Below are positions 17,459 to 34,191 of a stretch of 64,000 bases of DNA, piece by piece (position 1 is the stretch's first letter; each line of letters starts with the position of its first letter). The DNA lies in contig JBJHCF010000001.1 of assembly GCA_050506795.1 (NCBI GenBank), forward strand, positions 192,001 through 256,000. The letters run 5' to 3'. A program made the position numbers and the translations under genes. This stretch comes from Opitutia bacterium (GTDB lineage Bacteria; Verrucomicrobiota; Verrucomicrobiia; Opitutales; T3Sed10-336). The notes beneath the pieces were generated by a model that was given only the letters and a program-made list of their open reading frames with translations, searched no databases and was not told the DNA's origin.

Positions 17459-17514
17459 AGTATTGCTATACCAGGGTTCTATTCGGAGCAAAGGCGTTCG
17501 GCAAGCACCGCCGA

Positions 17515-18393: not shown

Positions 18394-18484
18394 GTCGACA
18401 CACTAATCGCTGAGGGAAAGCGAGGTCAAACATTGGGCGAATACGTCGTGGCGATTGGGAAACCGGTTCCGCCAAACCCCGCCA

Positions 18485-18943
18485 TTAAAGGGCCGGACCG
18501 GGTTGAGGCCGCCGGCTGAGCCGGTCCCGGACGAATCCCGGACGATCCAACACGAATGCCGCCGCCAAACCCAGGAAGATAAGAATATCGCGCGTAAGCC
18601 ACCAGAGGTAATTGGTTCCTTCCGTATCGGAGACGCCGAAGCAGCCGCAGGAAATGTTGAGTCCGCGAGCCCAGGCGGAGGTGATAAGCACGGCGAAAAC
18701 AACGGTCAGCCCAATGAGGATCAAAAGCGAGCCGGTCCGGGTACGCCGGTTCCAAAGGCCCGCCCCGCAGAGAATTTCCAGCCAGGGCAGATAAAAAGCG
18801 GTGGCGACCGCCAATACGTACGGCAGCAACCGGTACGATTCGATGTCTATCAGGAACTGGGCGGGATCCAGCACCTTGACCACCCCGGCGTATACAAAAA
18901 GACCGCCCAGAAACAGGCGAAGCGCCCAGTTAATGGCGGTCAT
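18485..18943 (-). CDS. MauE/DoxX family redox-associated membrane protein
   Basis: LRLFLGGLFVYAGVVK, LPWLEILCG, ARGLNISCGCFG. Confidence 0.85.
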   Translation of the reverse strand: MTAINWALRLFLGGLFVYAGVVKVLDPAQFLIDIESYRLLPYVLAVATAFYLPWLEILCGAGLWNRRTRTGSLLILIGLTVVFAVLITSAWARGLNISCGCFGVSDTEGTNYLWWLTRDILIFLGLAAAFVLDRPGFVRDRLSRRPQPGPAL

Positions 18944-19407
18944 CGTGAAGCCTCCGTCCAGGTTTCCCAACCGCCTCTCAGGACATGAACGTCCGGCGAT
19001 CCGATTTCCTCTCTGAGCCGCTCCGCCACCAGGTGACTCGCCCGGCACCCGCGACTGCCGCAGTAGACCACCACCGCGGGTTCATCAGCCATTATCCAGT
19101 GGTCCAGGAATTCAAAGAACAGATCTTCCCAATCATCCTCATTCAGCAGAATGGCTCCGGGAATGTGGTCTGCCTCAAACTCCTCGCGCGACCGGGCATC
19201 CACCCAAAGGGGACTCTGTCCCCATGCATCGACCATGGCCAGGGTCACTTCGCCATCGGTGGGCGTGTCCTCCGACCAGGACGGCGCCCCCGGATGCAAC
19301 AGTGCGGTTGCCGCCGCCGGGAGGAGGGGCAAAAGAAGGAGCAGCAGGATTTGCTTCCAGGGGAAATCTCTTCGGTTTTGCCACGGTTTTTCGGGTGCCG
19401 GCTGCAT
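18940..19407 (-). CDS. Rhodanese-like domain protein
   Basis: WVDARS..EF...HIPGA, VVVYCGSRGC, VLRGGW; N-terminal TM segment; ATGA overlap with mauE. Confidence 0.85.
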   Translation of the reverse strand: MQPAPEKPWQNRRDFPWKQILLLLLLPLLPAAATALLHPGAPSWSEDTPTDGEVTLAMVDAWGQSPLWVDARSREEFEADHIPGAILLNEDDWEDLFFEFLDHWIMADEPAVVVYCGSRGCRASHLVAERLREEIGSPDVHVLRGGWETWTEASR

Positions 19408-19481
19408 TGCTGAACCAAATCTGGTTGAATTCAGGCCGGAATGCAAGATTGGGTCTAGCGAGGCGTAGCCTCAGACCCGAA

Positions 19482-19530
19482 GTAGTGCACGCATCTTGCG
19501 TGCGAAATTCACGCTGGAAGCGTGAGCTAC
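19482..19530. repeat. GTAG-family REP-like inverted doublet
   Basis: GTAGTGCACGCATCTTGCGTGC and, on the opposite strand, GTAGCTCACGCTTCCAGCGTGA; each is GTAG plus a hairpin. Confidence 0.6.
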
Positions 19531-19550
19531 TGTTTCTCCGCATCCATTTG

Positions 19551-19711
19551 AAAAACCTGACTTAACTACAACAACTTTCGAGGTTTTAGGATTCTAGCCG
19601 GAATGGCGTTCGGTTATGGAAATTGTCCGAAGCCGCGGGCTCTGGTCTTTTGACCACAGACGAAGCGGAGCGTAGATGGCGGAGCATTGCGCAGAAGACA
19701 CAGATTCAAAG
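19551..19711. repeat. Copy 2 of the dispersed intergenic repeat (copy 1 at 3080-3224), abutting the distal end of the CRISPR array
   Basis: Colinear similarity to copy 1, with an extra ~25-bp insert CGAAGCGGAGCGTAGATGGCGGAGC. Confidence 0.85.
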
Positions 19712-19723
19712 GAAGTCCGCGTG

Positions 19724-20339
19724 GCTTCAATCGGGCCGCGCTCCGAGGAGCGCGGATACAACTATTTTCCATCCGGCCCCATCCTCATATTCTTGCTTCA
19801 ATGGGGCCGCGCTCCGAGGAGCGCGGATACGAGCCCGATGCCACAAGGAGGACTTTCTCCTGTATCCGCTTCAATGGGGCCGCGCTCCGAGGAGCGCGGA
19901 TACATCGCCAGCGGCATCCAAAGCGCCCTGCAGCGTTCGCTTCAATGGGGCCGCGCTCCGAGGAGCGCGGATACGTTTTTTCCATCACCCTCTACTACCC
20001 CCTCCCAACCTGCTTCAATGGGGCCGCGCTCCGAGGAGCGCGGATACGTTGCCTCCGGCGCCTGGTTCAGCCCTCCGGACCGCCGCTTCAATGGGGCCGC
20101 GCTCCGAGGAGCGCGGATACTGCCGAGCTTTATTCTTGGAGATAACAAACCAACCAACGCTTCAATGGGGCCGCGCTCCGAGGAGCGCGGATACTCGTCC
20201 GAATTCGGCGCTTATGCTACAAAGAAAACGGCTTCAATGGGGCCGCGCTCCGAGGAGCGCGGATACCCAAAAACAGCCCAAGACACAGTCCCACAACAAA
20301 GTAGCTTCAATGGGGCCGCGCTCCGAGGAGCGCGGATAC
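19724..20339 (-). CRISPR. CRISPR array: 9 repeats of 36 bp (GTATCCGCGCTCCTCGGAGCGCGGCCCCATTGAAGC) and 8 unique spacers of 35-38 bp
   Basis: Repeats start at plus positions 19724, 19795, 19868, 19939, 20012, 20085, 20159, 20231 and 20304; internal palindrome CCGCGCTCC..GGAGCGCGG; 3' ATTGAAGC handle; the only variant repeat is the distal one at 19724. Confidence 0.99.
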
Positions 20340-20560
20340 GGCAACTTCTTAAGTTGTTGAAAAGGAGGCGGATTCTCAAGCGTTTTCGCGCGGGGCTGGA
20401 AGCTGGATAGAGTATCGGTGATTTTGGGTGGATTTATGTCCAGGTTTAGGTTCGTCAAATAATTGAATGGCAATGATTGCGAGTGCCCACGGGGGCATTT
20501 TCACCACCAGGGCTCTCGCGGTTGCTGCAATCAATCTGTCAAAGAACGGCGAGGGCTTTT
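20340..20560 (-). promoter_or_regulatory. CRISPR leader
   Basis: Lower-GC non-coding region between cas2 and the first repeat, with GCGAG...CTCGC and TGTCAAAGAAC motifs often seen in type I leaders. Confidence 0.75.
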
Positions 20561-20851
20561 CTATACGACGTAGCAGGGGAGGTCCATCTTTGAATAGGTC
20601 ACGCCGATCGCGGTGATCGTTCGTTCTCCGCGGACGTGGCTGGGGCCGAGATCGACGAAAAGAACCTGATCTTCATCGTGGTTGATAAGGCTGTGCAGTT
20701 TTTCTTCAAACTCGGCCTTCTCCTTTGCTGTGAGGTCGCATTCGAAGACCGAAAGCTGAAGATGAACGCCATAGCCCTTGCAGGTCTTGAAAACTTTTCT
20801 CAACCGCTTGGGGTCGCAGATGTCGTAGGTGACGAAGAAATTTCGGCGCAT
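20561..20851 (-). CDS. cas2: CRISPR-associated endonuclease Cas2
   Basis: FVTYDICDPKRLRKV...GYGVHLQLSVFEC; adjacent to the leader. Confidence 0.95.
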   Translation of the reverse strand: MRRNFFVTYDICDPKRLRKVFKTCKGYGVHLQLSVFECDLTAKEKAEFEEKLHSLINHDEDQVLFVDLGPSHVRGERTITAIGVTYSKMDLPCYVV

Positions 20852-20868
20852 GGGTGTTGGTGGATTTG

Positions 20869-22650
20869 TTACCTATTCACAAACGGAATATACTGTTCGA
20901 TTTCTCCGGTAAGCACGCGGGCCAGAAGGCGGAACTGGAGTTCGAGGGCTCGGCGGTAGCTGACTTGATAGCCGAAAACGGGATGAGTGATCGGGCTGTT
21001 GATCCGTTTTTCGTAGGCCAGAAAGAACGTTTTCCTTCCGTTGGCGGACAGTGTGACCGAATCGCCGGCTCGGATGAAATCGGATTGGCGAAGCATGCTG
21101 TTGTTGATCAGGGTCAGGACCACGGAATCGGCTATGAGGGCGCGGAACTCCTCGAGGATATCCAGCGCGAGGGCGGGACGCCCAAAGCGCGGCTGATGGT
21201 AGAACCCCACGTAGGGATCGAAGCCGGCGGAGAATGCCGCCAGTGTGGCATCGCGGGCCAGGAGGCTGTAGGCGAGAGACAGCAGCGCGTTGACCGGATC
21301 GCGGGGAGGACGCCGGTTCCGGCCCTGGAAATCGAAAGGGAACTCGAGTTGACTTGCCTCGTCCTGCTCCTTTTGGGTCGGAGACTCTTTGCGGCTCTTG
21401 ATCATGCCCGCGAAATGCCCGAAATACAGGTTGGCCGCCGCGCCTTCGATTCCCAGGAGACTGCCGTTGCTGCTGGTGGCCAGGGCAGATCGGGCGAGAT
21501 TCTTCATTTGCCTGAGAACGTCCCTCGGAGCTTCAGTATGGTTGCGCATCAAAAGTGTGCGCTGATTGCGGATCTTTCCGTGAACGAAAAGCCGGGCGTG
21601 GCCGACCGCCAGTTCCGGGTCGGCCGCGTGCCGGAACTGTTCGATGCGGGTGAAGACGTTTTTGAGGCTGTGACCACGGGTCATTCCGTAGAACCAGCCG
21701 CCCATGGAGAAATAGGTTATGGGGATGTCGCGTTCACAGAGCGCCTGGATGGCGCCGGTGGAGACCTGGATCGGACCGAAGACCGCCAAGTGGTGAATGT
21801 CTTTGAGGCGGAATTCGCCGACCGTTTTAATTTTTTCTTTGGCGACGAGGGTTTCGTCCTTCTTACCGAGAAATAGACCGGGTGTCTGGAGGTACAACGC
21901 GCGGGTGTCATCGGCCGGAGCGATCAGGCGCCTGATGTCCTGACCGTTTTTTAATGAAGGCATCCGGATCTCCGGGATGCTGACGAATGGCCCCTGGGAA
22001 AGTCGATCCAGAGGGTCATCAATCGGCATATCGAAGGAGAGCTGCTCCGGTTCGGGGGTTTCGAGTGGGCGAATGTGTTCGGCGAGGAGCCGGGTTTCAT
22101 CCGGCAGACAAACACCGACCAGCGAGCACCGCGGACATTTCGGGGAATCATTCAAGGGTTCCGGAATCGATCCCCGCATGCATTGGCGAGCGGCCTCGAT
22201 TCGGTCGTAAATCCAAACTTCGGCTTTTTCATCCAGTTCGAAAGTCACCCGCTGCCGGGTTTCCCGGTAAAAAACAATCCCCCGGGCGCACGTGTAGCCG
22301 TTTTCGCGCAGGAGAAGAATTTGTACACCAAGCTGAATTTTATCGGCGTCCCAGAGTTCTTTTCCATCGTCACTTTCTCGGGGGCGGCCCTTTTTGTATC
22401 CGACTGGCTGATACTCGATGCTGCCGGATTCTCCGACGGCGCCCTCAACCAGATCCAGTTTCGCCGAGACACCCATGATGTCCGAGAAAAGCGAAACAGA
22501 GCGGGAGTAGATGGTTTCGGGGGGTGGTGGAGTAGGGGAGTGGTGGAGTTGTGGAGTGGGGGAGTCGGCGACCTCGGGTGTGGGAGACTCGGGGGATGCC
22601 AGGTTGGCGGGATCGGACTTCGACGGAGTTTTGGCTACCTCATAAGCCAA
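20869..22650 (-). CDS. cas1: Cas4-Cas1 fusion (type I-G); Cas1 looks intact, Cas4 domain 5'-truncated and motif-mutated
   Basis: Cas1 motifs LLGIEG, RRPPRDPVNALLSLAY, GFYH, LALDILEEFR; Cas4 keeps AKLDLVE and CPRCSLVGVC but lacks the first Fe-S Cys segment and has PVGYK instead of PV(D/E)YK. Confidence 0.9.
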   Translation of the reverse strand: MAYEVAKTPSKSDPANLASPESPTPEVADSPTPQLHHSPTPPPPETIYSRSVSLFSDIMGVSAKLDLVEGAVGESGSIEYQPVGYKKGRPRESDDGKELWDADKIQLGVQILLLRENGYTCARGIVFYRETRQRVTFELDEKAEVWIYDRIEAARQCMRGSIPEPLNDSPKCPRCSLVGVCLPDETRLLAEHIRPLETPEPEQLSFDMPIDDPLDRLSQGPFVSIPEIRMPSLKNGQDIRRLIAPADDTRALYLQTPGLFLGKKDETLVAKEKIKTVGEFRLKDIHHLAVFGPIQVSTGAIQALCERDIPITYFSMGGWFYGMTRGHSLKNVFTRIEQFRHAADPELAVGHARLFVHGKIRNQRTLLMRNHTEAPRDVLRQMKNLARSALATSSNGSLLGIEGAAANLYFGHFAGMIKSRKESPTQKEQDEASQLEFPFDFQGRNRRPPRDPVNALLSLAYSLLARDATLAAFSAGFDPYVGFYHQPRFGRPALALDILEEFRALIADSVVLTLINNSMLRQSDFIRAGDSVTLSANGRKTFFLAYEKRINSPITHPVFGYQVSYRRALELQFRLLARVLTGEIEQYIPFVNR

Positions 22651-22690
22651 TCATTTGCCGGGGTGGTCGCGGGCGTTTTCCGGGAATGGT

Positions 22691-22897
22691 TTACAATTTC
22701 CACTGCGAGCCACCGAAGCGCACGGGCTTCTTTCCTTTAAAAAACCTGGCGGCGTCGCTCGCCCACTGGCAATAACGCTTCCGGGCCTCGGCGGTTTGTT
22801 CAACGACGCGCGGACTGCGTTCCACAGGCGATTGTTTCCATCCGCGTTCGGTCAGTTCGCGGAAGGCGTTCCGATCATTGTTTGTCAGACGCTTCAT
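22691..22897 (-). CDS. Small basic hypothetical protein, likely partner of the nucleotidyltransferase
   Basis: 68 aa ORF overlapping the 3' end of the nucleotidyltransferase gene. Confidence 0.55.
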   Translation of the reverse strand: MKRLTNNDRNAFRELTERGWKQSPVERSPRVVEQTAEARKRYCQWASDAARFFKGKKPVRFGGSQWKL

Positions 22898-23438
22898 ACC
22901 ATTCCTTCATAGCGTCGAGCTTAGCCTCCAGTTGGAAGATTTTCAAATAGTCTGAGATCAAGTCCCAGTTTGGTTGACGATTCTCCTCGTAGCAATGTTC
23001 GAGGAGCAGACGAATATCCGCCCAGTCGGAAGTATTTCGCTTAGGGTCGTTGACAGTGGCTTGAATTTTCAGGCCGATGATATCTTCGATCGCAACTACG
23101 GGAACGCGTAGGGATTCGGTGATTTCGAGGCGTTCCGCCCTGTCGAGCATACTGAGTGTCGGACTGCGAAAGGCGTGAAGAAGATCGATGCGTCCCAGGT
23201 TCGCATCGTCGGAGACATAGTGGGAAACATTCTCGCTTTTGAATCCGCGACGGTACCCAAATTTTTCCAGAACGGCATGTGTTTTATCCAGATCCTTCAG
23301 CAACAGGATAAAGTCCAGGTCCACAGTCGCTCGCTGTACGCCCCTCAAGGCCATAGCGAAGCCACCGATGAGGGCGTATCGGGCTCCTTCTTCATCAAGC
23401 GCGCGGGTGAGCTGGTCGAGGACAGTGATGAAATTCAT
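22875..23438 (-). CDS. Nucleotidyltransferase-family protein (AbiEii/DUF6036-like, putative TA component)
   Basis: YALIGGFAM...RATVDLDF polymerase-beta motif, IIGLK, D.ADI. Confidence 0.8.
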   Translation of the reverse strand: MNFITVLDQLTRALDEEGARYALIGGFAMALRGVQRATVDLDFILLLKDLDKTHAVLEKFGYRRGFKSENVSHYVSDDANLGRIDLLHAFRSPTLSMLDRAERLEITESLRVPVVAIEDIIGLKIQATVNDPKRNTSDWADIRLLLEHCYEENRQPNWDLISDYLKIFQLEAKLDAMKEWYEASDKQ

Positions 23439-23529
23439 TGGTATCAGGAATGCTTGACGGACATCTTCATTCCAATCGATTTACCGGAAGATTCGCTCGC
23501 CTGTCGAGTTCGGCTTTAGGCTACGGCCT

Positions 23530-23958
23530 TTACTTCAGCGGATTCACTCGCCTGATGCCTTGAAAGCGATCGAAGTCGCGATCATTGCTGAAAACCGTGG
23601 CGGAATGCTCCATCGCGTGGAGAGTGATCAGGGCGTCAGTGGAAAGGTTGCCTCCTGTCCCCGCTTCCTCCAACAAATCAAAGAATCGTTCGGTCGCGTT
23701 TTCAGAAGGATTGAGCGTGCGGACGTGGGGACAGGACCACCAGACCGTTGTGATGGCGCGAACCTGATTCGTCGAAAGGGGATCCTCGCAAAGCTGGGGG
23801 TGAGTCATCAATCGTGTGAACGCCAGCAGCACGACCCAGGGAATGCCTATGGATTCGCCGCCTGACAAGGCGCCTTCCCACCAGGCCCTTGCTTTTTTAT
23901 GGTACGGCGAGGTTTCGTCGTAGGCGTAAATGAGAATGTTGGCGTCCGGGAGGATCAT
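23530..23958 (-). CDS. vapC: VapC family PIN-domain toxin
   Basis: MILPDANILIYA, GGNLSTDALI, SNDRDFDRF. Confidence 0.9.
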   Translation of the reverse strand: MILPDANILIYAYDETSPYHKKARAWWEGALSGGESIGIPWVVLLAFTRLMTHPQLCEDPLSTNQVRAITTVWWSCPHVRTLNPSENATERFFDLLEEAGTGGNLSTDALITLHAMEHSATVFSNDRDFDRFQGIRRVNPLK

Positions 23959-24209
23959 GGTTCCGCCACCCTCTGATTGGCTTCAGCCTCCACTTGGTCG
24001 TAAAGCTGATTCATGCTCATTCCCCGGTAGGCGGGTTTGATGCCGACTTTATGGGTTTGAATTCGGATTCGCTTGCGGGGCTGAGGGTCGGCGGCCAGTC
24101 CGCGTTGCAGGGTTTCCTCAAGAATCTCGCGCAGAGGCCGATTCCTCTCTTCCGCTCTGGCTCGCAAATCGCGTAGAATACCATCACTGATGTTGATTGT
24201 TGTCCGCAT
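23955..24209 (-). CDS. vapB: VapB-type ribbon-helix-helix antitoxin
   Basis: MRTTINISDGILRDLRARA; ATGA overlap with vapC. Confidence 0.85.
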   Translation of the reverse strand: MRTTINISDGILRDLRARAEERNRPLREILEETLQRGLAADPQPRKRIRIQTHKVGIKPAYRGMSMNQLYDQVEAEANQRVAEP

Positions 24210-24330
24210 AATAGACATCATGATGCCTAAACGCGAAAGGTCAAGACGCTCGTGCCTTTTCCCGGGTCGATCATTTCCGATCAGGGTCGTCTCGTGGAGA
24301 ATCCGTGGGTGGAGCGCTTGCCGCTTCGTT

Positions 24331-25527
24331 TCAGGAACGCGACGAGCGGTCTTCACCGGACGGGGGAAGGCGGAGTGATGCCTCTTTCGCCGAGGACTGC
24401 TGCAGCGAACCGGACGCCGTTCCGGAGCCGCCGGTCCTCGCTTCCCTTTTTCGGATTTTCGAACGAAACAGCAGGTAATGCTTTTTCAGTCGCTCGACAT
24501 AGGCGGCGTCTTGCAGGACTACGGCTTCAAAGAGACGCAGGAGAGCGCCGGCGTACTCGGATTGCGGATTCAGCGGATCGAGGGTGGCGCCGGCCATATC
24601 ATGAGCGTCGTTCGAATTACCTCCGAGCCAACGCGTGTAGAACGCCTCGTCCTCCCAACCGTAGTTGATTGTCGCCAGAACCGTCTCCGGTCGCTCGCTC
24701 GACCGTACCTGGATAAGGACGCGGCGGCAGTCGCATTCCGGATCGACGCAGTACAGTTCGATGAAACCGTAATCCCCGGCGGGCAGACCCGATTGCGGTT
24801 TCTGAAGCCTGACACCCCGCGTCTCGTTCGCGGCGAGTTCCGGAAATTCGCTCGCAAACGAAGCCATCGCCGCCATCGGCCTTTCCTCGGGGAATGCATC
24901 GTTTGTTTTCGGATCCGACTCGAATGAATCGTCCGTCTCGTCGGCCGGAAGGGGGAGATCGAGATTGAAGAAGAGGTCTCCGACGGCCTCCATGTTCTCG
25001 GTGGAGAGCGTATAATAAAAACCTTCCCAGCCGAAGCGACGGAAGAGACGGAGAATCGTGCGCGCGACAACTTCGGGAGGGTCATCCGGGTCTTCCCGAT
25101 AGTGCGGTTTGCCGTCGCAACCGAATGTGAACTCCTCGGAACAATCCGATGCGCGCACACCTCCGAAGACGCGCATGGCTTTCTTGAGGTTCCGATTTGG
25201 AGCAAAGCCCAACGCGCGGGCGTACTCAACGGCGCCCTCGATGATCTTTCGCGCGCACGCCGGATCGATCTCCGGGCACTCTCCGATTTCTTGGATCTCG
25301 CCTCGCCGCTGCTCGTCGAACTCTTCCTCAGAGATGACCCGGTAGACCGCGCTCATGACGCCCCGGCAGTGAACGTCGACAAAAACGATCCCGACCTCCA
25401 CCATGCCGCCTGATTTGCGCCGCGCTCCCAAAATACGTCCCCAGCCAATCTCGAACAGGTCGGCGTTCATATCGGCGATAAGTCGCTTCTTTTCGGACGA
25501 TGCCTTGTTCCCGGTCATGAAGGACAT
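24331..25527 (-). CDS. Two-domain hypothetical protein with Cys-rich ELYCVDPECDCRRV motif (domains typically seen in SEC-C-associated proteins)
   Basis: Long ORF; the TTG start at 25620 falls inside a degenerate CRISPR repeat, so ATG 25527 or 25518 is preferred. Confidence 0.65.
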   Translation of the reverse strand: MSFMTGNKASSEKKRLIADMNADLFEIGWGRILGARRKSGGMVEVGIVFVDVHCRGVMSAVYRVISEEEFDEQRRGEIQEIGECPEIDPACARKIIEGAVEYARALGFAPNRNLKKAMRVFGGVRASDCSEEFTFGCDGKPHYREDPDDPPEVVARTILRLFRRFGWEGFYYTLSTENMEAVGDLFFNLDLPLPADETDDSFESDPKTNDAFPEERPMAAMASFASEFPELAANETRGVRLQKPQSGLPAGDYGFIELYCVDPECDCRRVLIQVRSSERPETVLATINYGWEDEAFYTRWLGGNSNDAHDMAGATLDPLNPQSEYAGALLRLFEAVVLQDAAYVERLKKHYLLFRSKIRKREARTGGSGTASGSLQQSSAKEASLRLPPSGEDRSSRS

Positions 25528-25613
25528 TAGGACAAAATCACCCCCGAGACGGCAAGACCGGACGACTGACCGCAGCCATTTTGTCCGGTCGAGGGGCGTG
25601 GGACGAGAGGGGT

Positions 25614-25649
25614 ACTTCAATGAGGCAGCGCTCCGATGAGTGCGGATGT
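25614..25649 (-). repeat. Solitary degenerate CRISPR repeat
   Basis: Plus-strand ACTTCAATGAGGCAGCGCTCCGATGAGTGCGGATGT matches the array repeat at 29 of 36 positions in the same orientation. Confidence 0.85.
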
Positions 25650-25657
25650 TGCCGTCC

Positions 25658-25749
25658 GTAGCGCCGTGCTTCAGCCGGCGTCGGGATCGGGGTTGCAGCT
25701 GAAACGGACTCTCGAAACACCGGGAGATCCCGCTGAGGCGGGGACCTAC
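25658..25749. repeat. GTAG-family REP-like inverted doublet
   Basis: GTAGCGCCGTGCTTCAGCCGGCG and, on the minus strand, GTAGGTCCCCGCCTCAGCGGGA. Confidence 0.55.
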
Positions 25750-25767
25750 GCGAGAACCCGTAGCTTG

Positions 25768-26157
25768 TTACCTCCAAATGGTATCGATTCCGAAGGAAGC
25801 GAAAGCGCCGTCACGAGTGATCAGCGGGAGGTTTTCCGACTTTGACTGGGCGGCGAGCAGGCGATCGAAGGGGTCGCGGTGATCGTTCTCTATCAAGCCG
25901 GCGCGTTGCGCGTGAATGACGTCGAGGGGGAGGTGCAGCCAGCTTTCTTCGCGGGCGTTGCCCGCCAGATCCTGGATGAGACGTTCGGGAAGAGAAAGGC
26001 GGCCCAAGCGGTGTTTGTAGGTGATCTCGTAGGCCGAAACCGCGCTGAAGAAAATGCGGTTTCGCGGATCCCGGATCAGTCGTTGTGCTTTGCGGCTCAG
26101 GCGCTTTGGCGCACACCACCACCAGACCGCGGCGTGGGTATCGAGGAGGAAATTCAT
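25768..26157 (-). CDS. vapC: VapC family PIN-domain toxin
   Basis: FLLDTHAAVWW, FFSAVSAYEI, HRDPFDRLLAAQ, LITRD. Confidence 0.92.
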   Translation of the reverse strand: MNFLLDTHAAVWWWCAPKRLSRKAQRLIRDPRNRIFFSAVSAYEITYKHRLGRLSLPERLIQDLAGNAREESWLHLPLDVIHAQRAGLIENDHRDPFDRLLAAQSKSENLPLITRDGAFASFGIDTIWR

Positions 26158-26405
26158 TTCTCCGGGTCAATCGGCTGTTCCCATCGCGCCTGTTGGTCGT
26201 CATCGAGGGGCTCAAAGAACGCCTTGTCCGAAACGGGAGGCGCATCCGCGAACCGGCCGGGCGTGCGCTCCCGGGGAATTTCGGGGCTCAAACGGGCCAC
26301 CGGCTTGCCGTGGTTGGCAATGACGAACTCTTCCCCCTGTGCCACTCGCTTGAGAAGTTTGCTGAGCTGGGTCTTGGCCGCATGGATGTTGATCGTTTCC
26401 GCCAT
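26154..26405 (-). CDS. Phd/YefM family antitoxin
   Basis: INIHAAKTQLSKLLKRVAQGEEFVIANHGKPVARL; ATGA overlap with vapC. Confidence 0.92.
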   Translation of the reverse strand: MAETINIHAAKTQLSKLLKRVAQGEEFVIANHGKPVARLSPEIPRERTPGRFADAPPVSDKAFFEPLDDDQQARWEQPIDPEK

Positions 26406-26433
26406 ACCCTAAACAGTTAGTTTAAAAATCGGA

Positions 26434-26547
26434 CTAGGTCAAGCGTTGAGCCGGTCATTCTGGCTAGTCGGTTTTTGGAATGACTTCCCAAACAATAACT
26501 CCGTCAGTTTGCCCAGGCTTAATGGTCCGGCTCAACGACGGACCTAC
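26434..26547. repeat. GTAG-family REP-like inverted doublet
   Basis: Minus-strand GTAGGTCCGTCGTTGAGCCGGACC (26524-26547) and a degenerate plus-strand partner CTAGGTCAAGCGTTGAGCCGGTC (26434-26456). Confidence 0.55.
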
Positions 26548-26672
26548 ACGGCGAAGGACAGACTTAAGAACTCCCGGTGCTGTGCGAACCGGTGGCCCTT
26601 CCATGTTGCCGCTGCCCACACCTCGTCTCCGGGGGTCATTCTTCGCGGTCATAGCTCTCTTTTTTCATGGAT

Positions 26673-27587
26673 TCAGACCGCTTGTGACGGAGTGAAGTTG
26701 CGGAATTTGCCGGTGGTGATGCGCTGGCTGCGGAAGACGGCGGCGATGCCGCGGGCGTGGAGTTCGGCGGGATCGGGTGAACCGGGCTGTATGTCTCGCA
26801 GGGCGAGGAGGGAACGTCCGGTGTCGAGGGTGATGGAGGGCATCCAGATCGGCCAGGTCCAGAATGTGTCGTTGCTGCGGTGTCCGGTGAATCCGGTGGT
26901 TTTGAGGTGAGTGCCAACCGGAAAAGTCGGCAGCAAGGGAAGGGCTTCGATGGCGAGGCGGTTCGCGCCGTGTTGGGTGCGGGTGGGGTCTTGACTGGGA
27001 TTTTTCCATGCCAGCGCATAGCGTTTGTCTTCGGCGGGATCCCAGCGAAGGCCGATTTTTTCATCGGGGTAGGTCCAGGTCTCAAACAAGGTGTTCCGGA
27101 GTTGCTCCTCGGTGGTGATTTCCGCGAGGTCGTTCATGGTCTTGAGGAAGTGTTGGTGTCCCGCTCCGCTCATAGTGCGCAGGGCGGTGTCCTCAATGTC
27201 GCCTTGCTCGTTGATCGCCACAGAGGAGCCGAAAGCGGCGAAAAAGGCGGCGGAAATCCGGTCATCCTCATCAAACCAACGCTCCATTGCCGCCTTGGCT
27301 TCCTTTTCGAATTCGCCGGGTTTGAGTTTGAGGTTTTGTGAGAAGGTGAAGACCCGGTGTTGGTGCATTTTCGCCAGCTCCGTGTGGAGTTGTGCAATGA
27401 AGGCGTCGCGTTCCAAGGGCTGGTGAAGGGAAAGCACCGGCGCCCAGTGCCCGGCGTGGGGTTTCCAGTGGAGTTTGGTGCCGGACTGAATCTGGTCGGC
27501 GATGCGCCACGTGCCGAGGACGGCGAGAAAGCCGAGTGGGTTGGCGCCGTCGAGGCCGGGAAGGGGAAGCGGGTGGAGGTCGTTCAT
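26673..27587 (-). CDS. csb3: Type I-G (I-U) Cas8g2/Csb3-type large subunit
   Basis: LPGLDGANPLGFLAVLG N-terminus, LRWDP.ED.RYAL, GANRLAIEALPLLP, WTWPIW; ATGA overlap with cas3. Confidence 0.75.
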   Translation of the reverse strand: MNDLHPLPLPGLDGANPLGFLAVLGTWRIADQIQSGTKLHWKPHAGHWAPVLSLHQPLERDAFIAQLHTELAKMHQHRVFTFSQNLKLKPGEFEKEAKAAMERWFDEDDRISAAFFAAFGSSVAINEQGDIEDTALRTMSGAGHQHFLKTMNDLAEITTEEQLRNTLFETWTYPDEKIGLRWDPAEDKRYALAWKNPSQDPTRTQHGANRLAIEALPLLPTFPVGTHLKTTGFTGHRSNDTFWTWPIWMPSITLDTGRSLLALRDIQPGSPDPAELHARGIAAVFRSQRITTGKFRNFTPSQAV

Positions 27588-30371
27588 GATGCGGCGGTGG
27601 TTTCGAGATTGGCGGTGTCATCGGTATACCATCCTTCGGCCTCGGCTTCGCTGGCCTGCTGGTCCGCGAGGCGCAGGATGGCTTCGAGGAAGGAGAGTCC
27701 CCAAGGTCCGTGTTGGCGGAGCAATCTCCAGAAACGGTCGGGGATACCTGAGTCGAGGCGGTGGGCGGGTTTGTCCTTGCGCTCGCTTCCGGAGATGGAG
27801 ATGGCGGGTGCGCCGGGCAGACTTTGGGTGCCAAGCGGTGGCGGATCGGGATCGTCGATGACCGGGGCGAAGGGGCGGGCGTGTCCGTGGTGGGCGGCGA
27901 TGAGGTGGAACGCGAGATCGCGAAGGCCGGCGGCATCGGGCAGAAGGTCCGCCGCGTCCGGGTGGGTGGCAAGCGGGAGCGAGCTGAATTCGTGTCGGAA
28001 GCCTTTGGGCAATGCGGAACGTCGGTGCGCGAGTTCCCGTTCGCGGAGGCTGGCGGAGAGGCGGTCGGATTTGGCCAGGGGCTCCGGAAGGGCGTAGGCG
28101 GCGTGTGGGTTGCCGCCGAGGAGCAAGGCCTGAAAGCGCGGATCGAGTTTGCCCCAGTCGTGCAGATCAGCGGCGGCGGCGAGGCAATTCCGGATGTCTT
28201 CGCTCAGTCCGAGAGCCCGGGCACTGGCGACGACGAGATCCCTGACGTGATCGGTGTGTGCACACAGGGTCACCGGACCGGTGCCGGTGGCGCGGCTCCA
28301 TTCGTCGGCTTCGTCTTCGGCTTGAGTGATAACTTGATTCTGGCGGAGGCGATCACGGAGGCGGCGGCGGGTGGTGAGAACGATGCCGCGTTCGTCGGCA
28401 TAGCGTGCTTGGGTGAATCCGAGTTTGTGCAGGGAAATCAGTAATTCCTTTAGATGCTGAAAACGGGCTTCCTCCTGCGAAGCTTCTTTAAGTAGGTTTC
28501 GCAGCTCTCTCTGGTTCAGACTTGCGTCCGGATCGTCGGCATACTGGATGAGTTCCTGCCAGGCTTCCCTGCCGCTTACGCCGGGAAACAAGTCAGCGCG
28601 GAGGCGAAGCAAGGCCCGGTCGTGGGTGATGCGGAAGGCCTCTTCCGCACGGTCGATGGGAAGAAGTTGGTCCAATGGGAGCGGCTCTTCTTTTTCTTTA
28701 AGACTCCCCGGATCGGTTGGGGCACCTGGAATGTGTCCGAGCTGGCTCCAGCCGCCAAGGGTGAGGGGAAGGACAATGGTGTCGCCGGGGTAAAGGTCTC
28801 CCGGTCGCTCGATCACTTTGCTTTCGGAAGCTCCTCTCCACAGGAGCGCGGTGCCGATTGGCTCTTTTGGGTCGTTTCGACCTGCCGGTGCGTCGGCGGA
28901 GGCGGCCGCGTCGAGCACGTCGCCGGTGTCGGCGAGGACGGCGGTCTTCGCGTTCGACTTGAAAAACCAGTTCTGGAAAACGTGCAGGGGAACGGGGAGG
29001 GCTTCGACTTGCGAGGGCGGGCAAAGGCTGAGGTTCTGAATCGCGGCATCAGGATCGGCATTCTCCGGAAGGTCGGCCCGCCAGAGAACGAGAACATCCG
29101 GGCGGGCGGTCTGCTTACCGTGGAGGAAAAGCGCGGGATCGGGATCTGGCCAGGGGGCGGGATTGGTTTGCGCCCAGGCGTCGAGGTAGGCGGGGAAGAG
29201 GGGCGGCGCGGACGAGGTCGGAGCTTGGAGGCGGTTGAGTTCCTCCTCGGGAAGATTCTTCACGAGCTCGCCCATGTGGGTGAGTCCGAAGTCGACCGAG
29301 TTCCCGGAGGCGACGGATTGGAGCCAGTTCCAGGTTTCCGACAAGGCGTTGCCGTAGATGGGGTCGAGCGGTTGGCCGTCGGCGGCGAGTTTGTCCAATT
29401 TCTTGCGATCGGTTTCGATCAGGTGGCCCGGCATAACGATGCACCCGGTGGCCGGGATGTCGCGTCCGGCACGGTTGAGGCGGCCGAAGCGTCGGCGGAG
29501 GGCGTCGAGGCTGGCGCATTCCGTGACGAGGCCGTCGAAGTCGAGGTCGGCGCCGACCTCAAGGCACTGAGTGGCCACGACAACTTCCACTGGGGGCGGT
29601 GTTTCGCCGTCGGGGATTGGTTCGCGCCGGGCGGCGGTTTTGAGGGCGGCCTGGATGCGTTGGGTTTCGGCGTCGCGGTCGATGGGGCGCATCCGCCCGA
29701 TCAGGAGAGAGGTGTTCGCCTGAAAGCGGGCCTTTTTTGATTTGGATTCCTTTGCGACCAAGTCGGCGACCAGGCGGGCGGTGGCCACGCGGTTAACCAT
29801 GATGGCGAGCGAACGCGGCGTGGTTTCGGCAATGATGGCGGCCGCTTGGTCGAGGAGGTCGGCGGCGAGGGTTTCCTGCTCCCTGGCCTTGGTTTTTGCC
29901 GAAGAGATTGTCAGGCGAACCGGCTTGGTGGCGTTCAGGCGTTTGGTCAGCACCGGGTGCTCGCGGTCGGCGTCGGTGAGGGCGATCGTGTTTGTGGCAC
30001 CCTTTGGAGGCGTGGCGGTCATCTGCACCCAGCGCAGTGGCGGCGGCTTTATGGAGTCCGGGTTTTGGGCGATATGGTGTTCGCGAAAGCGTTGGAGCGC
30101 GGCCACGGTTTCGGCGAAGGGGCGGCTGATGTGGGCTTCGTCGAGAATCCACAGCGCATCCGTTGCGACCAAGGCGGCGTGGATGGGCCTGGGCGGCAAG
30201 CGCATAGACCGTCATTTCGAGACAGGCAGTCTTGCCGCTGCCCGTAGGCGCGGCGATGAAATCGGGCCAGTCCCCGGCAACCGCGCGTTCGGCAAGCTTG
30301 CGTTGCCAGGGGAAGAGAGTGTGGCTGTCGTTAAGTTCGGCGAAAAATTCAGCGAAGGTGGGGAGGGTCAT
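27584..30371 (-). pseudogene. cas3: Type I-G Cas3 (SF2 helicase with C-terminal HD nuclease), disrupted by an internal deletion and frameshift at ~30182-30190
   Basis: N-terminal piece MTLPTFAEFF..FPWQ..APTGSGKT..LAAQAH is in one frame and RPIHAALVATDALWILDEAH..QMTATP..ATQCLEVGADLD..HDWGK..RHE..HHG..RLAD in another; the expected VVDRR and STVDQ/SRLLFRGYG motifs are absent. Confidence 0.85.
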
Positions 30372-30483: not shown

Positions 30484-31380
30484 TCAGGACAGGTGGTAGC
30501 CGAAGAGCGAGAGTTTGTTTCGGAGGATCCTGTCGAGGTTTGGTTTGTCGCGAGGGGAGATTGAGATGAGGCGTTTGCCTTCCTGTTGATAGAGTTGCTG
30601 TTTCTTCAGCATGCCGATCTTGTAGTCGGCGGTATCAAGTCCCCAATATTCGATGTAGATGTCTAGTTCCGGGAGATAGAAGTCGGGTCGGATCGCATGA
30701 CCGTTGAGGATGCGGTAACGTTCGTCGTAGCGGTAGGCGATATTGTTGGCGCTGAGCCAATCCGCGATTTTCCGTTCGCCGTCGGACTGCACCAGAGTTC
30801 CGGCCTTGGCGGTGATTTGTTTGTTGAGTTCGACTTTGGTTTCAAAATTGCGTCGTGCGAGGAAGACCTCATCAAAGCACGGATCGCAGTAGTTGCGTTG
30901 GAATGCCTGTTGGCTTTTTGTATGCTCTTCCGGGGAAATCTCGCGTCGGCAGCGAATGCATTTGTGGCGAGCGTTTTCCTGCTCTAGACGGATGGCTTCA
31001 CGAATCGCTTCGGCGGCGGAATGGGCGGCCCGGCGGACGTAGTCCTTGATCTGTTCGTTAGAGGAGAGATCGTCGAGGTCGGCGAGGTGGTCTCTTGCGA
31101 ACGCGCCGAAGGATTTCATGGCCTTGAGGGCGTATTGTTGGACTTGGGGGTGAGGGTCGCGTAGGGCGATGGGCAACAACGCGGGAATCGCCGTGGAGCC
31201 ATCGGCTCCGAAGGGAGCGAGCTTGGCGATGGCGGATGCGGCGAGCCGGCGGACTTCGGCGGACGGGCTGCGAAGAAAACGGATCAGTTCATCCAGTGCA
31301 TCAGGATCGGCGCTGCGTCCAAGTTCAAGAGTGCGCTGAACGTGTTCATGATGTTGCCGGCGATCCATGTGAGTCTTCAT
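30484..31380 (-). CDS. HEAT-repeat / C4 zinc-ribbon / PD-(D/E)XK-like (DUF559/Vsr-like) nuclease-domain protein inside the cas operon
   Basis: HEAT-like units (SPSAEVRRLAASAIAKL; DPHPQVQQYALKAM), CIRC...CDPC, then SDGERKIADWL..IAYRYD..RPDFYLPELDIYIEYWG. Confidence 0.75.
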   Translation of the reverse strand: MKTHMDRRQHHEHVQRTLELGRSADPDALDELIRFLRSPSAEVRRLAASAIAKLAPFGADGSTAIPALLPIALRDPHPQVQQYALKAMKSFGAFARDHLADLDDLSSNEQIKDYVRRAAHSAAEAIREAIRLEQENARHKCIRCRREISPEEHTKSQQAFQRNYCDPCFDEVFLARRNFETKVELNKQITAKAGTLVQSDGERKIADWLSANNIAYRYDERYRILNGHAIRPDFYLPELDIYIEYWGLDTADYKIGMLKKQQLYQQEGKRLISISPRDKPNLDRILRNKLSLFGYHLS

Positions 31381-31449: not shown

Positions 31450-32652
31450 TCACTCGGGCACTCCCTTCCTCCAGGGTTTGCACAAGCCATACCCACGGTA
31501 GCGGCCGGCTCCAAGGAGTACCGGACCGAGGACGGGGCGGTCGAAGCGTAGCCAGACGTGGGCCTGGCGGCGGTTGGGGCCGCCGGGGCGGGTGGGCATG
31601 AGGGGATAGCCGTCAGGGCCGGGCTTGGTGCGCGGTGCGCCGCGGTGCGGGTGTTCCGAAGGTTTGCCGTCAGATTGGTGGCCGTTGACCCATTCCGGGG
31701 TGGGGGCGGTATGTTTTTCAATGGCACCGCGCAGGGCGGTGAGCAGTTGCCAGGTGGATTCGAGTCCAAGGTTGGGGCCTTCCCGTTTGTCGAGAATGAG
31801 GAGGGCGTCGTCGAATACGGTGGAGACGGGTAATGCTTCGTCCGGGTTGTTGGAGAGGCGTTGGTAGGCTTGGGTCATGCTGAGGACGGGGCGACGGGAA
31901 CCGGGTGCGGCGAGGCTTGCCTTCCACGGAACTCCGAATTCGGCTTCAAACTCGGCCTTAACCGTTTTTTGCTCTTTCCCTTTGGTTGATTGGATGCGGG
32001 TGTAGAAATCGTAGAACCGATCCACCGCTTCGCCGTTGTATTGTTCGCGGAGGTAGTCGAGGCAGCCGGGGCCGGGCATGCGGAATCGCTCTAGAGATCT
32101 GGTCCCGCTTTCTTCCTGAGTGGGCACCCAGCCGGATGGTTCGTCCGGGGGATTCTCGCTCAACCACATGCGGACCAGGGACGAGGAATGCCCGATGCGG
32201 ATGACTTTCGCGCAGATCCGCTCCAATGCGTCGCGTTGCGTATCGGTCGGTTCCGCCGCAGGCCAATGAAGATAGAGCATCGACTGGTGGGGACGGACTT
32301 TCGGGAAGGTGCGTGGCTGGCGGTTGGTGCGGTAGGCCGGAATGATCGTCCGTTTGGTCGGCCCCATGTCGTTGGGCGGAACAAATACGTCCACGACATC
32401 GCGACGGTCAATGGTCTCCGAACCGAAGATCAGCGGTGCTTCGAGCTTTTCCAGCCAGCGCAACGCCTCTTCCTCATGTTGCCATGACTGAATGGCAGCC
32501 GTTTCCGAAGGGGTTGGACGGGATTCGAAATAAGCCGCCGCCATGGCCATGAAGACGCGCCCGGGGTGGGGCGGCCACTCCGCCACCGCACGGTCGCCCG
32601 TGGATGTGGCGACCGCGTAACCGGTGAGATATTCGATGCCGAGGGTGAGCAT
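31450..32652 (-). CDS. csb2: Type I-G Csb2 (Cas5/Cas6 fusion), probably with an in-frame deletion in the Cas6-like half
   Basis: AEWPPHPGRVFMAMAAA, ALRWLE, IGHSSSLV, C-terminal GPVLLGAGRYRGYGLC; PSEHPH runs directly into RGAPR without the usual LP..GH.ADG and W.TVTP blocks. Confidence 0.85.
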   Translation of the reverse strand: MLTLGIEYLTGYAVATSTGDRAVAEWPPHPGRVFMAMAAAYFESRPTPSETAAIQSWQHEEEALRWLEKLEAPLIFGSETIDRRDVVDVFVPPNDMGPTKRTIIPAYRTNRQPRTFPKVRPHQSMLYLHWPAAEPTDTQRDALERICAKVIRIGHSSSLVRMWLSENPPDEPSGWVPTQEESGTRSLERFRMPGPGCLDYLREQYNGEAVDRFYDFYTRIQSTKGKEQKTVKAEFEAEFGVPWKASLAAPGSRRPVLSMTQAYQRLSNNPDEALPVSTVFDDALLILDKREGPNLGLESTWQLLTALRGAIEKHTAPTPEWVNGHQSDGKPSEHPHRGAPRTKPGPDGYPLMPTRPGGPNRRQAHVWLRFDRPVLGPVLLGAGRYRGYGLCKPWRKGVPE

Positions 32653-32655
32653 GGA

Positions 32656-33867
32656 TCAGTCTCCGTCTTCGTCGGTGGCTTCGGCGGCGGCGATTTCCTG
32701 ACTGCGCTGGAGAAGCTCGACCAACTGAGGAGCTGGTGTGAGTTTGAGGGGTTCCTTGCGCCATGTAAGGCCAACCTTTTCGGCAGCGGCGACGGCCGAC
32801 TTCAGCGTCCGGATGGCGGAGTCGGCATCAATGGTCAGAACGGAAGGTTTCGCGCCCGGCTTTTCGAGAAGCTCCCATTGAAGTTCTGCTTCTGGCCAGA
32901 GGAGACAGCGGGAGCGAAGATCGTAACCGTTTTCGGCGGCGAGGGCCGAAGCGGTCAGAGCGAGGGCCGCAAGGACGGTTCGCCCGGCGGCATCGGATTC
33001 GGTGGTGGGAGCGCCACCATTGATGGGGAAGCGTAGACGGCGCAACGCAGGGAGGGAAAGGACCGTGGTCTGCTCGGCGTAGTCGATGGTGACGCCGCCT
33101 GTCTTTCGATCCACATCCGGAGGAATATTGCCGTGGTTGACTTCCGAGGGCGACACCGCGCTCTTGGCGGAATCGCTTTTCGCCAAAGTATATCCATCTT
33201 TCGATTTCATGACCTTGGCAGCGGCACGAATTTGCATTGGGTCGATACGGCTGCTGGTTTTGGCGCCGGTTTGTGCGTTGATGCCCACAATCTCCGAAAC
33301 CAGCGCCCGCTGGAACTTCGCGCCCAAGCCGCCCTTCGGGCCGGTGGAATCCCAGATCCCGAAGATCAGGGCCGTCGGGCAGATTTCGTAAAGCGGGGTG
33401 GCGTTGTTGAGACTGGCGTAGTCGAGCTTTTTGCCAATGTCGGATTTGCGGAAGGGAGTGTTGTCGAGGAGACTGTCGCGCAGAATGGCATCCGCCGCGC
33501 GGTGGGGGGCCTGCAGACTCGTGATCCGCCCGATTTCGTCGATGAGTTTAAGGCCCGAGAAATCGACTTCGATGAGTGGAATCGGGCAATCGTCGAAGCG
33601 TCCGGCATCGATGGCCAGTTGGAGCGCTTCTTCGAGGCGGTTGGCCTGCGACTGAACGGAGTCCATGAGGACGCACGGGATGGTAGCGCAAGAGCCGTCC
33701 GGTTGTTTTACGCGACGTTCTTCGGTGGCATAGACCGCGCCGGCATAGGTAGGCGGAAAGGCTTTGTCGCCTTCGCCCCCCGCGGGTTGGAGGCGCGTGC
33801 GGGCGCGGAATGCCGCAGCGGAGCCTGAGACGGCGGATTGGAGAGTCTGGAGGTCGATTAATTTCAT
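32656..33867 (-). CDS. csb1: Type I-G Csb1 / Cas7u backbone protein
   Basis: LQPAGGEGDKAFPPTY, DSVQSQANRLE, APHRAADAILRDS, PTALIFGIWDS, PSEVNHGNIPP, YDLRSRCLL. Confidence 0.92.
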   Translation of the reverse strand: MKLIDLQTLQSAVSGSAAAFRARTRLQPAGGEGDKAFPPTYAGAVYATEERRVKQPDGSCATIPCVLMDSVQSQANRLEEALQLAIDAGRFDDCPIPLIEVDFSGLKLIDEIGRITSLQAPHRAADAILRDSLLDNTPFRKSDIGKKLDYASLNNATPLYEICPTALIFGIWDSTGPKGGLGAKFQRALVSEIVGINAQTGAKTSSRIDPMQIRAAAKVMKSKDGYTLAKSDSAKSAVSPSEVNHGNIPPDVDRKTGGVTIDYAEQTTVLSLPALRRLRFPINGGAPTTESDAAGRTVLAALALTASALAAENGYDLRSRCLLWPEAELQWELLEKPGAKPSVLTIDADSAIRTLKSAVAAAEKVGLTWRKEPLKLTPAPQLVELLQRSQEIAAAEATDEDGD

Positions 33868-33933
33868 AGCTTTTGTATTTGGTGTATTTATTATTTGTTG
33901 AGGGATTTCTAAACCGAAGGGGGGATAGATTCT

Positions 33934-34182: not shown

Positions 34183-34191
34183 TGTTCGTTC

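Follow-up and report, generated by a model that had tools for sequence, protein, structure and literature searches.

The type I-G CRISPR-Cas locus of this Opitutia bacterium carries, apart from its array, a solitary degenerate copy of the array repeat, here called psi-R, which lies among toxin–antitoxin genes. The question is whether this copy works as a regulatory RNA or a processing site, or is a relic. We followed it in the whole stretch of DNA analysed (the window, 64,000 nucleotides), in the rest of the genome and in related loci. Psi-R descends from the type I-G repeat of this locus and is probably a non-functional orphan in neutral decay.

The locus has csb1/cas7g, csb2 (cas5-cas6), cas3g, cas8g, cas4-cas1, cas2 and an array with a 36-nt repeat. 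In the order of minus-strand transcription, csb1/cas7g and csb2 are followed by a HEAT_CxxC_PD-DExK gene, cas3g, cas8g, a cargo block of 4.0 kb, cas4-cas1, cas2 and the array.

32656-33867, minus strand: csb1/cas7g
31450-32652, minus strand: csb2 (Cas5-Cas6 fusion), internal residues missing
30484-31380, minus strand: HEAT_CxxC_PD-DExK gene between csb2 and cas3g, in the same position in the related locus L012
27584-30371, minus strand: cas3g, disrupted
26673-27587, minus strand: cas8g, type I-G large subunit, 'Cas3-extension' family (NF049934, 2.7e-79; PADLOC Cas8g, 2.3e-99)
22651-26672, minus strand: cargo insertion of 4.0 kb between cas8g and cas4/1
26154-26405, minus strand: Phd/YefM antitoxin gene, upstream of psi-R (PF02604, 8e-10)
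25768-26157, minus strand: PIN/VapC toxin gene, upstream of psi-R (PF01850, 6.1e-15)
25614-25649, minus (crRNA) strand: psi-R, solitary degenerate CRISPR repeat, 29/36 to the array repeat, handle 7/8, two unpaired stem positions
24331-25527, minus strand: gene of a 398-aa protein, downstream of psi-R, no family match
20869-22650, minus strand: cas4-cas1 fusion, adaptation gene
20561-20851, minus strand: cas2, adaptation gene
19724-20339, minus strand: CRISPR array, nine repeats of 36 nt, the genome's only array with this repeat; a variant repeat stands at the trailer end (19724)

The cargo block consists of the Phd-VapC pair, a REP element, psi-R, the 398-aa gene, a 133-aa ORF with a PIN gene, and an AbiEii-like nucleotidyltransferase gene. 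The junction between cas8g and cas4/1 is a usual site for cargo, since the gaps of related loci at this point run from 0.3 to 6.3 kb. The 398-aa protein has no Pfam, NCBIfam or PADLOC family and a single full-length homologue (49% identity); the remaining matches span 27-45% of the query. We considered the gene as a cas-associated one and rejected this, as it has no cas family match and its homologues are DUF1186/SEC-C proteins that match in the C-terminal third only. A set of 62 metagenome loci found via this protein was uninformative on the repeat.

Descent and decay of the repeat copy

Psi-R shares 29 of 36 positions (81%) with the array repeat consensus (19868-19903), on the same strand. 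It begins 5310 nt from the start of the nearest array repeat (20304), with cas2, cas4/1 and five cargo genes in between. When all 82 contigs (4.94 Mb) were scanned on both strands, the nine array repeats were recovered, eight at 36/36 and one at 35/36, and besides these and psi-R no match above 24/36. From base composition, a match of at least 29/36 is expected 2.5e-6 times per window and 1.9e-4 times per genome, and one of at least 24/36 is expected 5.6 times per genome. As the genome background tops out at 24/36 and a 29/36 match is expected only 1.9e-4 times, psi-R descends from the resident repeat. The preliminary description had reported the 29/36 match on the array strand, the distance of about 5.3 kb, the place between a VapC toxin gene and a hypothetical gene (here the 398-aa gene), and a kept 3' handle with part of the hairpin (here 7/8 of the handle and six of eight stem pairs); all of these were reproduced, and the 36 nt that follow psi-R on the minus strand are the same as those it quoted.

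The seven changes in psi-R are at repeat positions 1, 2, 9, 13, 23, 27 and 36 (crRNA sense). As transcribed on the minus strand, the array repeat ends in ATTGAAGC; the 8-nt 3' handle of psi-R is ATTGAAGT, matching at 7/8. In the 8-bp stem six pairs are left, the mismatches arising from G to A at position 9 and G to T at position 23. These positions sit in opposite arms and are not partners, so two separate pairs are broken, uncompensated. The predicted hairpin of psi-R has an energy of -5.5 kcal/mol (z 0.31), and 120 of 200 shuffled sequences fold at least equally well. The hairpin of the array repeat reaches -17.4 kcal/mol, and the full repeats in the mini-arrays of the related loci L011 and L012 (described below) reach -17.2 and -14.8 kcal/mol. 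Set against the features by which CreR/CreA mini-arrays are processed and loaded, psi-R has 7/8 of the handle and a hairpin of -5.5 as compared with -17.4 kcal/mol.

By region, two changes fall in the 16 stem positions and one in the eight handle positions. If seven changes were placed at random over 36 positions, at most one would fall in the handle with P = 0.50 and at most two in the stem with P = 0.31. The kept handle is therefore no sign of selection, since random placement leaves at most one change there half the time. The spread of the changes is as random decay would give.

Partner, target and flanking DNA

Outside the array, a scan of the whole genome for a second repeat unit at 22/36 or better found none besides psi-R. 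The 10-nt handle motif (at most one mismatch) occurs elsewhere in the window only within the cas7g coding sequence and at one site 22 kb away, so that the window has no further intergenic copy of it. At the place where a second unit would be expected, the 36 nt match the repeat at about 11/36, by eye. An 8-bp hairpin within 25556-25590 was considered as a substitute for the second repeat and rejected; it begins 23 nt past the handle and is unlike the repeat stem, and the 128-nt region folds no better than shuffles (z -0.41). Both scans are thus empty at a suitable distance, in agreement with the earlier statement that psi-R has no second repeat.

The PAM of type I-G is TTN (10.1101/2022.08.08.503147). 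Candidate targets were scored over the first 18 nt of the guide minus every sixth position (15 scored positions), and TT was required two and three bases upstream. For the guide of psi-R, the best TTN-flanked match in the 20-kb cas locus is 10/15, a score reached by 285 of 300 shuffled spacers; in the whole window the best is again 10/15, reached by all 300. Shifting the guide through registers -4 to +4 gives at most 12/15, with none of these sites in the cas locus. The absence of a target in the window, claimed before, holds up: no TTN-flanked seed match exceeds the shuffles. The PAM-adjacent search that the preliminary description had suggested, with every sixth base free, yielded no cas-locus site above background (10/15 against 285/300 shuffles). 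Genome-wide, the best TTN-flanked site scores 14/15 (contig C20, near 2881, seed position 1 mismatched). It lies in a heptad tract of the kind described next, as one of the readings weighed below would have it.

The DNA on both sides of psi-R is of a kind dispersed through the genome.

25655-25750, no strand assigned: REP/MITE-like dispersed palindromic element of 96 nt, on the upstream side of psi-R (crRNA sense) and separated from it by 5 nt
25578-25613, minus strand: 'pseudo-spacer', containing a heptad tract of the CCCCTCG/CCCCACG family at 25590-25603

Copies of the REP-like element are found on contigs C2, C28, C13, C8, C4 and C5, with three tandem 86-nt units at C2:123964-124221, and its core motif has 219 matches in the genome. 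Heptad tracts of the CCCCTCG/CCCCACG family number 48 genome-wide, as against 3-11 in three shuffles; nine of the 48 are within 300 nt of a REP core. The order of a REP element followed by a heptad tract recurs at intergenic sites on C6, C10 (twice), C16 and C23. The best other full-length match of the pseudo-spacer in the genome (26/36) is within a heptad tract. Because REP elements and heptad tracts are dispersed throughout the genome, the pseudo-spacer resembles its common intergenic filler, not an acquired or selected spacer. We also tried the 36 nt upstream of psi-R as the spacer, with psi-R as the downstream unit, and rejected them since their strong matches are all other REP copies. Outside the REP element, only 22 nt are left between the VapC stop codon and psi-R. 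When the flanks of psi-R were compared with the array leader and trailer and with 26 related loci, similarity was confined to the repeat part. For either half of the pseudo-spacer, a protospacer search of viral contigs gave no exact match.

Rfam returned no family at gathering thresholds across the window, and none at E values up to 1 in 25300-26000 or 19400-19760. In 25300-26500 no promoter-like sites were found; the two terminator-like sites there are on the plus strand only and are at about shuffle level. An antisense transcript from the plus strand that pairs with pre-crRNA repeats was also considered, but type I systems are not known to rely on such a transcript. Read-through transcription across psi-R is plausible, as it is on the same strand as its neighbours and that strand has no promoter- or terminator-like site. 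A search for RNA runs that contain 24900-26400 gave none.

Mini-arrays and conservation in related loci

Cas8g was used to find 26 related loci, of which 14 have cas7g plus upstream sequence. The gene order cas7g-csb2-cas3g-cas8g is common to all 14 examined. The closest loci come from Opitutales metagenome-assembled genomes (Cas8g identity 90% for L011, 88% for L012 and 75% for L013), and the whole cargo block is absent from all three. In L013, cas8g directly abuts cas4-cas1. In L011 and L012 different genes follow cas8g, and the DNA shared with the cargo stretch amounts to one 106-nt match (72% identity).

Standalone repeat elements turned up in many of the 26 loci, and in nine of these 14. 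Detection did not use one threshold throughout: some scans required 23/36 or more to the window repeat, some a perfect copy of a 9-nt handle motif, and others 60% identity or more to the repeat of the locus concerned. In eight loci (L011, L012, L017, L020, L021, L022, L023 and L032) the element is upstream of cas7g, and in seven of these it runs against the strand of the cas genes; in L028 a standalone repeat directly follows cas8g and borders a cargo gap of 4 kb. L013, L025, L026, L029 and L036 showed no standalone element, and none of the 14 loci has a same-strand solitary repeat in the gap between cas8g and cas4/1. The typical mini-array consists of a handle-only upstream unit (CCCCATTGAAG plus one base), a spacer of about 36 nt and a full repeat with an intact stem. 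By inspection, the full copies keep a stem of 6-8 bp, often with compensatory differences from the stem in the window.

The mini-array spacers served as the positive control for the target score. Six of seven match a TTN-flanked site in their own locus at 13-15/15, a score reached by 0/300 shuffles in each case.

L011 mini-array: 14/15, PAM TTA
L012 mini-array: 13/15, PAM TTT
L021, first mini-array: 15/15, PAM TTT
L021, second mini-array: 14/15, PAM TTG
L022 mini-array: 14/15, PAM TTT
L032 mini-array: 13/15, PAM TTT

The seventh, in L020, reaches only 11/15. The matched sites are a few dozen to about 800 nt away, and mismatches tend to fall at every sixth position. In L011 the cas7g start codon comes 5 nt after the end of the site, and in L012 the site is 69 nt upstream of that codon; both mini-arrays abut toxin–antitoxin genes, with an antitoxin-like gene following at once. 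The target test is therefore able to detect functional-looking elements, and psi-R fails the same test. The general premise of the preliminary description, that type I cas loci carry guide-type mini-arrays, is borne out by these six of seven spacers.

In 60 relatives the REP part alone gave matches, and none extended across psi-R and its flanks; the five genomes with the closest loci had no spanning match either. Among 400 sampled genomes of the phylum there is likewise no match spanning psi-R, the only notable one being to another genome's CRISPR array. These 60, 400 and five genomes are samples, some of them incomplete, and none carries the cargo genes. The conservation expected of a functional element thus did not appear: no orthologue of psi-R was found in 465 other genomes, none with the cargo genes. 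This absence is weak evidence, because no available relative has the surrounding cargo genes; as judged from these comparisons, it shows an apparently recent or rare cargo block rather than psi-R having been lost elsewhere. Contigs from three DNA runs revealed a relative of about 92% identity in two soda-lake metagenomes; they cover 25419-25569 and 25644-25788, on either side of psi-R but not across it, stopping at 25569 and resuming at 25644.

The mini-arrays bear on where psi-R came from. Psi-R could be specifically a decayed regulatory mini-array, displaced or brought in with the cargo, a sub-case of the relic reading that differs only in origin; we regard this narrower origin as possible but doubtful. 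It is consistent with the frequency of standalone elements (nine of 14 loci, the one in L028 lying at the very edge of the cargo gap) and with the toxin–antitoxin genes that adjoin the L011 and L012 elements. The window also has no mini-array at the usual site upstream of cas7g (33868-34400), unlike its closest relatives, and its sequence there is unrelated to that of L011 or L012. The kept handle and lost hairpin of psi-R are like the upstream unit of the relatives' mini-arrays. However, the flanks of psi-R are unlike any relative's mini-array, leader or trailer, its orientation is opposite to that of eight of the nine relatives' elements, and the toxin–antitoxin proteins of the window have no relation to the ones next to the L011 and L012 mini-arrays. 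The 22 nt between the VapC stop codon and psi-R, with the REP element excluded, are moreover too short for a spacer and an upstream unit.

Readings of psi-R and comparison with known systems

The state of the host system also bears on what psi-R could do. The Cas6 domain of Csb2 binds the repeat hairpin and cuts 4 nt beyond the stem, leaving an 8-nt handle, and the Cas6 nuclease is the C-terminal domain, from about residue 260 in the protein described in that study (10.1101/2022.08.08.503147). The csb2 gene of the window is without residues 337-477 (141 residues): in tblastn, the 542-residue L011 orthologue aligns through residues 1-336 and residues 478-539, both in one frame. By position and on the domain boundary given in 10.1101/2022.08.08.503147, the deletion would fall inside the Cas6 half; no PDB sequence matched Csb2 to provide a solved structure. 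In cas3g, two parts of the L011 orthologue align in different frames, residues 1-77 at 30371-30156 and residues 187-1045 at 30190-27602, and residues 78-186 are missing. Both genes are whole in L012, where the cas3g orthologue is uninterrupted. The host type I-G system is itself decaying, as the damage to csb2 and cas3g makes plain. It may have been active recently, since the nine array repeats have hardly diverged from one another. Damage to Csb2 would not necessarily end all processing, because Csb1 is reported to be able to process pre-crRNA too (preprint 10.1101/2022.08.19.504415).

A working regulator of the CreA/CreR type would be cut to the ATTGAAGT handle, and its guide would direct Cascade to repress a cas or toxin promoter. 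For psi-R we think this unlikely. Its descent from the repeat, its place within a cas locus beside toxin–antitoxin genes and the 7/8 handle would suit such a role. So would the mini-arrays with strong seed and PAM matches in relatives of this type I-G variant, and control of toxin–antitoxin cargo genes is described in 10.1101/2023.03.10.532045 and 10.1101/2023.03.03.530964. Against it, psi-R has no downstream repeat to provide the 3' hairpin that Csb2 binds (10.1101/2022.08.08.503147), and the hairpin on which cutting depends is broken. In no register does a PAM-flanked seed match in the locus or the window rise above background, and the guide itself is a generic heptad tract. Csb2 has the internal deletion in its Cas6 half, cas3g is disrupted, there is no promoter-like site in 25300-26500, and psi-R is conserved in no relative. 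The suggestion that psi-R is a Cascade-loaded guide of this type accordingly loses its footing, with no second repeat, a seed score of 10/15, a broken hairpin, a generic heptad guide and no conservation. From these features we infer that psi-R is neither processed nor loaded.

Quite improbable is a role as a cutting or binding site for Csb2 (Cas6-type) in the operon transcript, at which the VapBC message would be split from the downstream gene or Csb2 would be titrated. Psi-R is on the strand of the flanking genes, in a 240-nt gap free of promoter- and terminator-like sites on that strand, as such a site would need. Yet the hairpin, to which the Cas6 domain binds (10.1101/2022.08.08.503147), is down to -5.5 kcal/mol with two mismatches, the genome's Csb2 is without residues 337-477, and no analogous same-strand site was seen among the 14 related loci. 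The broken hairpin and the incomplete Csb2 thus weaken the cleavage-site proposal of the preliminary description.

We give slightly less credence still to psi-R as a handle donor that remains in use. It resembles one, as the upstream units of the relatives' mini-arrays likewise keep only the handle. VapBC read-through RNA would be cut, perhaps by Csb1, and the guide would lead a Cascade with no working Cas3 to dozens of G-rich intergenic heptad tracts. If this were true, a decaying immune system would have turned into a multi-site transcriptional regulator. That psi-R serves as an RNA anti-CRISPR or a decoy, having arrived as a solitary repeat unit on a mobile element, is hardly credible: it does sit in inserted cargo DNA and solitary repeat units are described, but the described units are identical or nearly so to the host repeat (10.1101/2023.03.03.530964) whereas psi-R is 81% identical with a broken stem, the scanned ORFs of the cargo block include no integrase, transposase or phage gene, and neither the psi-R variant nor the resident repeat is present in the viral contigs searched.

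The reading of psi-R as a decaying relic fits the evidence best. CRISPR repeats are prone to recombination and related loci have repeats at cargo borders, so psi-R may be the remnant of a mini-array or of an array unit. The cargo (two toxin–antitoxin pairs, the nucleotidyltransferase gene and the 398-aa gene; 4 kb) was inserted between cas8g and cas4/1, and recombination at a repeat-containing unit during the insertion or an exchange of cargo is the likely way in which psi-R was stranded. The source unit could have been a regulatory mini-array as in the relatives or a terminal unit of the array. The space around psi-R was later filled by the REP-like element on one side and the heptad tract on the other, both of kinds common in this genome. 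Of the earlier proposal of a relic of a lost array, the relic part stands; a lost array is only one of its origins, and a decayed mini-array or the footprint of recombination at cargo insertion would fit equally.

Psi-R alone is of little weight, and the comparison with the relatives is more useful. A likeness to the repeat, even with a kept handle, is insufficient to call a regulatory RNA, and the scoring of targets is a control that separates working-looking elements from relics. With the mini-arrays of the relatives, self-regulation in type I-G has concrete candidates that can be tested; the literature consulted had no more than a one-line mention for this subtype.

Psi-R can be placed against three kinds of known element. 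A CRISPR array has at least two regularly spaced repeats and a leader, unlike psi-R with its single unit. Psi-R is like a degenerate terminal repeat or the remnant of an orphan array in having drifted, as a repeat does once spacer acquisition has ceased to renew it, while keeping the strand of the array, but it is 5.3 kb away from the array and its flanks have no similarity to leader or trailer.

For CreR/CreA, autorepression by CreR is described by Liu et al. (10.1101/2023.03.10.532045), where a manual search is stated to have identified creA-like elements in several subtypes, I-U (since renamed I-G) being one. As in those systems, the repeat is degenerate and lies close to toxin genes inside a type I cas locus. 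CreR/CreA elements have two repeat units around a PAM-adjacent spacer that matches a promoter, whereas psi-R has one unit, no match and no conservation (10.1101/2023.03.10.532045). The mini-arrays of L011, L012, L021, L022 and L032 fit the CreR/CreA description given there; psi-R does not.

Closest is the collection of Shmakov et al. (10.1101/2023.03.03.530964), who describe standalone repeat-like sequences, mini-arrays and single repeat units (SRUs) in cas loci, some of which control toxin–antitoxin cargo. Like these, psi-R is derived from the repeat and occupies intergenic DNA of a cas locus away from the array, beside toxin–antitoxin cargo. Unlike the SRUs, which are identical or nearly so to the array repeat, psi-R has seven changes, two of them stem-breaking, and it is unconserved in related loci, conservation being what that study takes to mark functional elements (10.1101/2023.03.03.530964). 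The same authors remark that partial degradation affects many standalone repeats, and they allow that a single unit may in some cases be a mini-array with a second repeat too decayed to be recognised (10.1101/2023.03.03.530964). Psi-R adds one more degraded example to the standalone repeats already known from cas loci.

Damage and cargo in the effector operon

The effector operon of the window carries two lesions. In csb2 (31450-32652), 141 residues, corresponding to 337-477 of the orthologue in L011, a closely related type I-G locus, are missing, with the sequences on either side aligning in a single frame; cas3g (27584-30371) is split and lacks residues 78-186. Both genes are whole in L012, another of the closest relatives. 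Judging from these genes, interference in this genome seems to be inactive, although the repeats of the window array remain nearly identical despite the damage. A HEAT_CxxC_PD-DExK gene separates csb2 from cas3g in the window (30484-31380) and in L012 (around 5700-6600); the corresponding interval in L011 (6133-6855) is occupied by an ORF whose DNA matches the ORF6N region of the window (35808-36425). Judged by this gene content, the interval is a second variable cargo slot, lying within the effector operon. In L012, cas4-cas1, cas2 and an array are all absent from the stretch of up to 10 kb that follows cas8g (10968-20912), which contains an AbiEii-like gene and Wadjet-like genes (DUF3375, DUF4194 and an SbcC-like ATPase); a mini-array, a standalone repeat element outside any main array, is the only repeat element in view at this locus.

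Upstream of cas7g lie two copies (33934-34182 and 36323-36742) of a cas3g 5' end that comes from a different gene than the one above; they are 85-91% alike across about 220-280 nt, and both include the Walker A motif. L011 holds the same fragment (2679-2790), ending just short of that motif. It may be that today's cas cassette lies within the remains of a type I-G locus that is older than itself.

Dispersed repeats and a handle motif in cas7g

The degenerate solitary repeat of the window is flanked by two dispersed elements. A REP/MITE-like palindromic element (25655-25750), with ends of the GCTGAAGC type, recurs at many other sites in the genome. A core motif of the element has 219 matches genome-wide; three tandem 86-nt units lie on contig C2 (C2:123964-124221), and two related genomes also contain short matches. 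The CCCCTCG/CCCCACG heptad tract (25590-25603) is found at 47 other places in the genome. Because the opposite strand of such tracts is G-rich, they might form G-quadruplexes. Many have REP elements and simple motifs of the TTCTTGG and ATCTGTG types close by, the whole having the look of mosaic intergenic elements. A sequence of about 100-150 nt just past the trailer end of the array (19551-19705) has a second copy 16.5 kb away (3080-3215); the copies align in two blocks that are 81-86% identical, and Rfam gives no match.

An exact copy of the 10-nt handle motif, CCCATTGAAG, lies on the plus strand at 32874-32883, antisense within the cas7g coding sequence; by chance, about 0.1 such copies would be expected per window. 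It is conserved in L011 (4475), most likely as a by-product of coding conservation.

Mini-arrays of related loci

In related type I-G loci, the mini-arrays consist of a handle-only unit, a spacer of about 36 nt and a full repeat.

Mini-arrays, their targets and the genes after them (coordinates of each locus)
L011, 3225-3340, minus: mini-array, target 3457-3474
L011, 3000-3225, minus: DUF433-like gene
L012, 2200-2290, minus: mini-array, target 2883-2900
L012, 1900-2200, minus: small gene, antitoxin-like or unknown
L021, 1727-1810, minus: first mini-array, target 1825
L021, 2781-2890, minus: second mini-array, target 3692
L021, downstream of 1727 and of 2781: small ORF after a TATAAT box
L022, 3350-3435: mini-array, target 3520
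L032, 3954-4040, plus: mini-array, target 3881

Each of these spacers has a TTN-flanked match at a distance of a few dozen to about 800 nt, agreeing at 13-15 of 15 seed positions, a level that 0 of 300 shuffles attained in each case; several of the mismatches fall at every sixth position. The mini-arrays of these five loci are candidates for type I-G autoregulation of a CreR-like kind. Small antitoxin-like or unknown genes directly follow those of L011, L012 and L021; in L021 the small ORF and its mini-array are present as a tandem duplication, and a gap of just about 24 nt lies between one mini-array and the site that its spacer targets. The adjoining genes and this close target suggest that mini-array and gene form a Cascade-repressed protein-gene module, a putative arrangement that loosely resembles CreTA.
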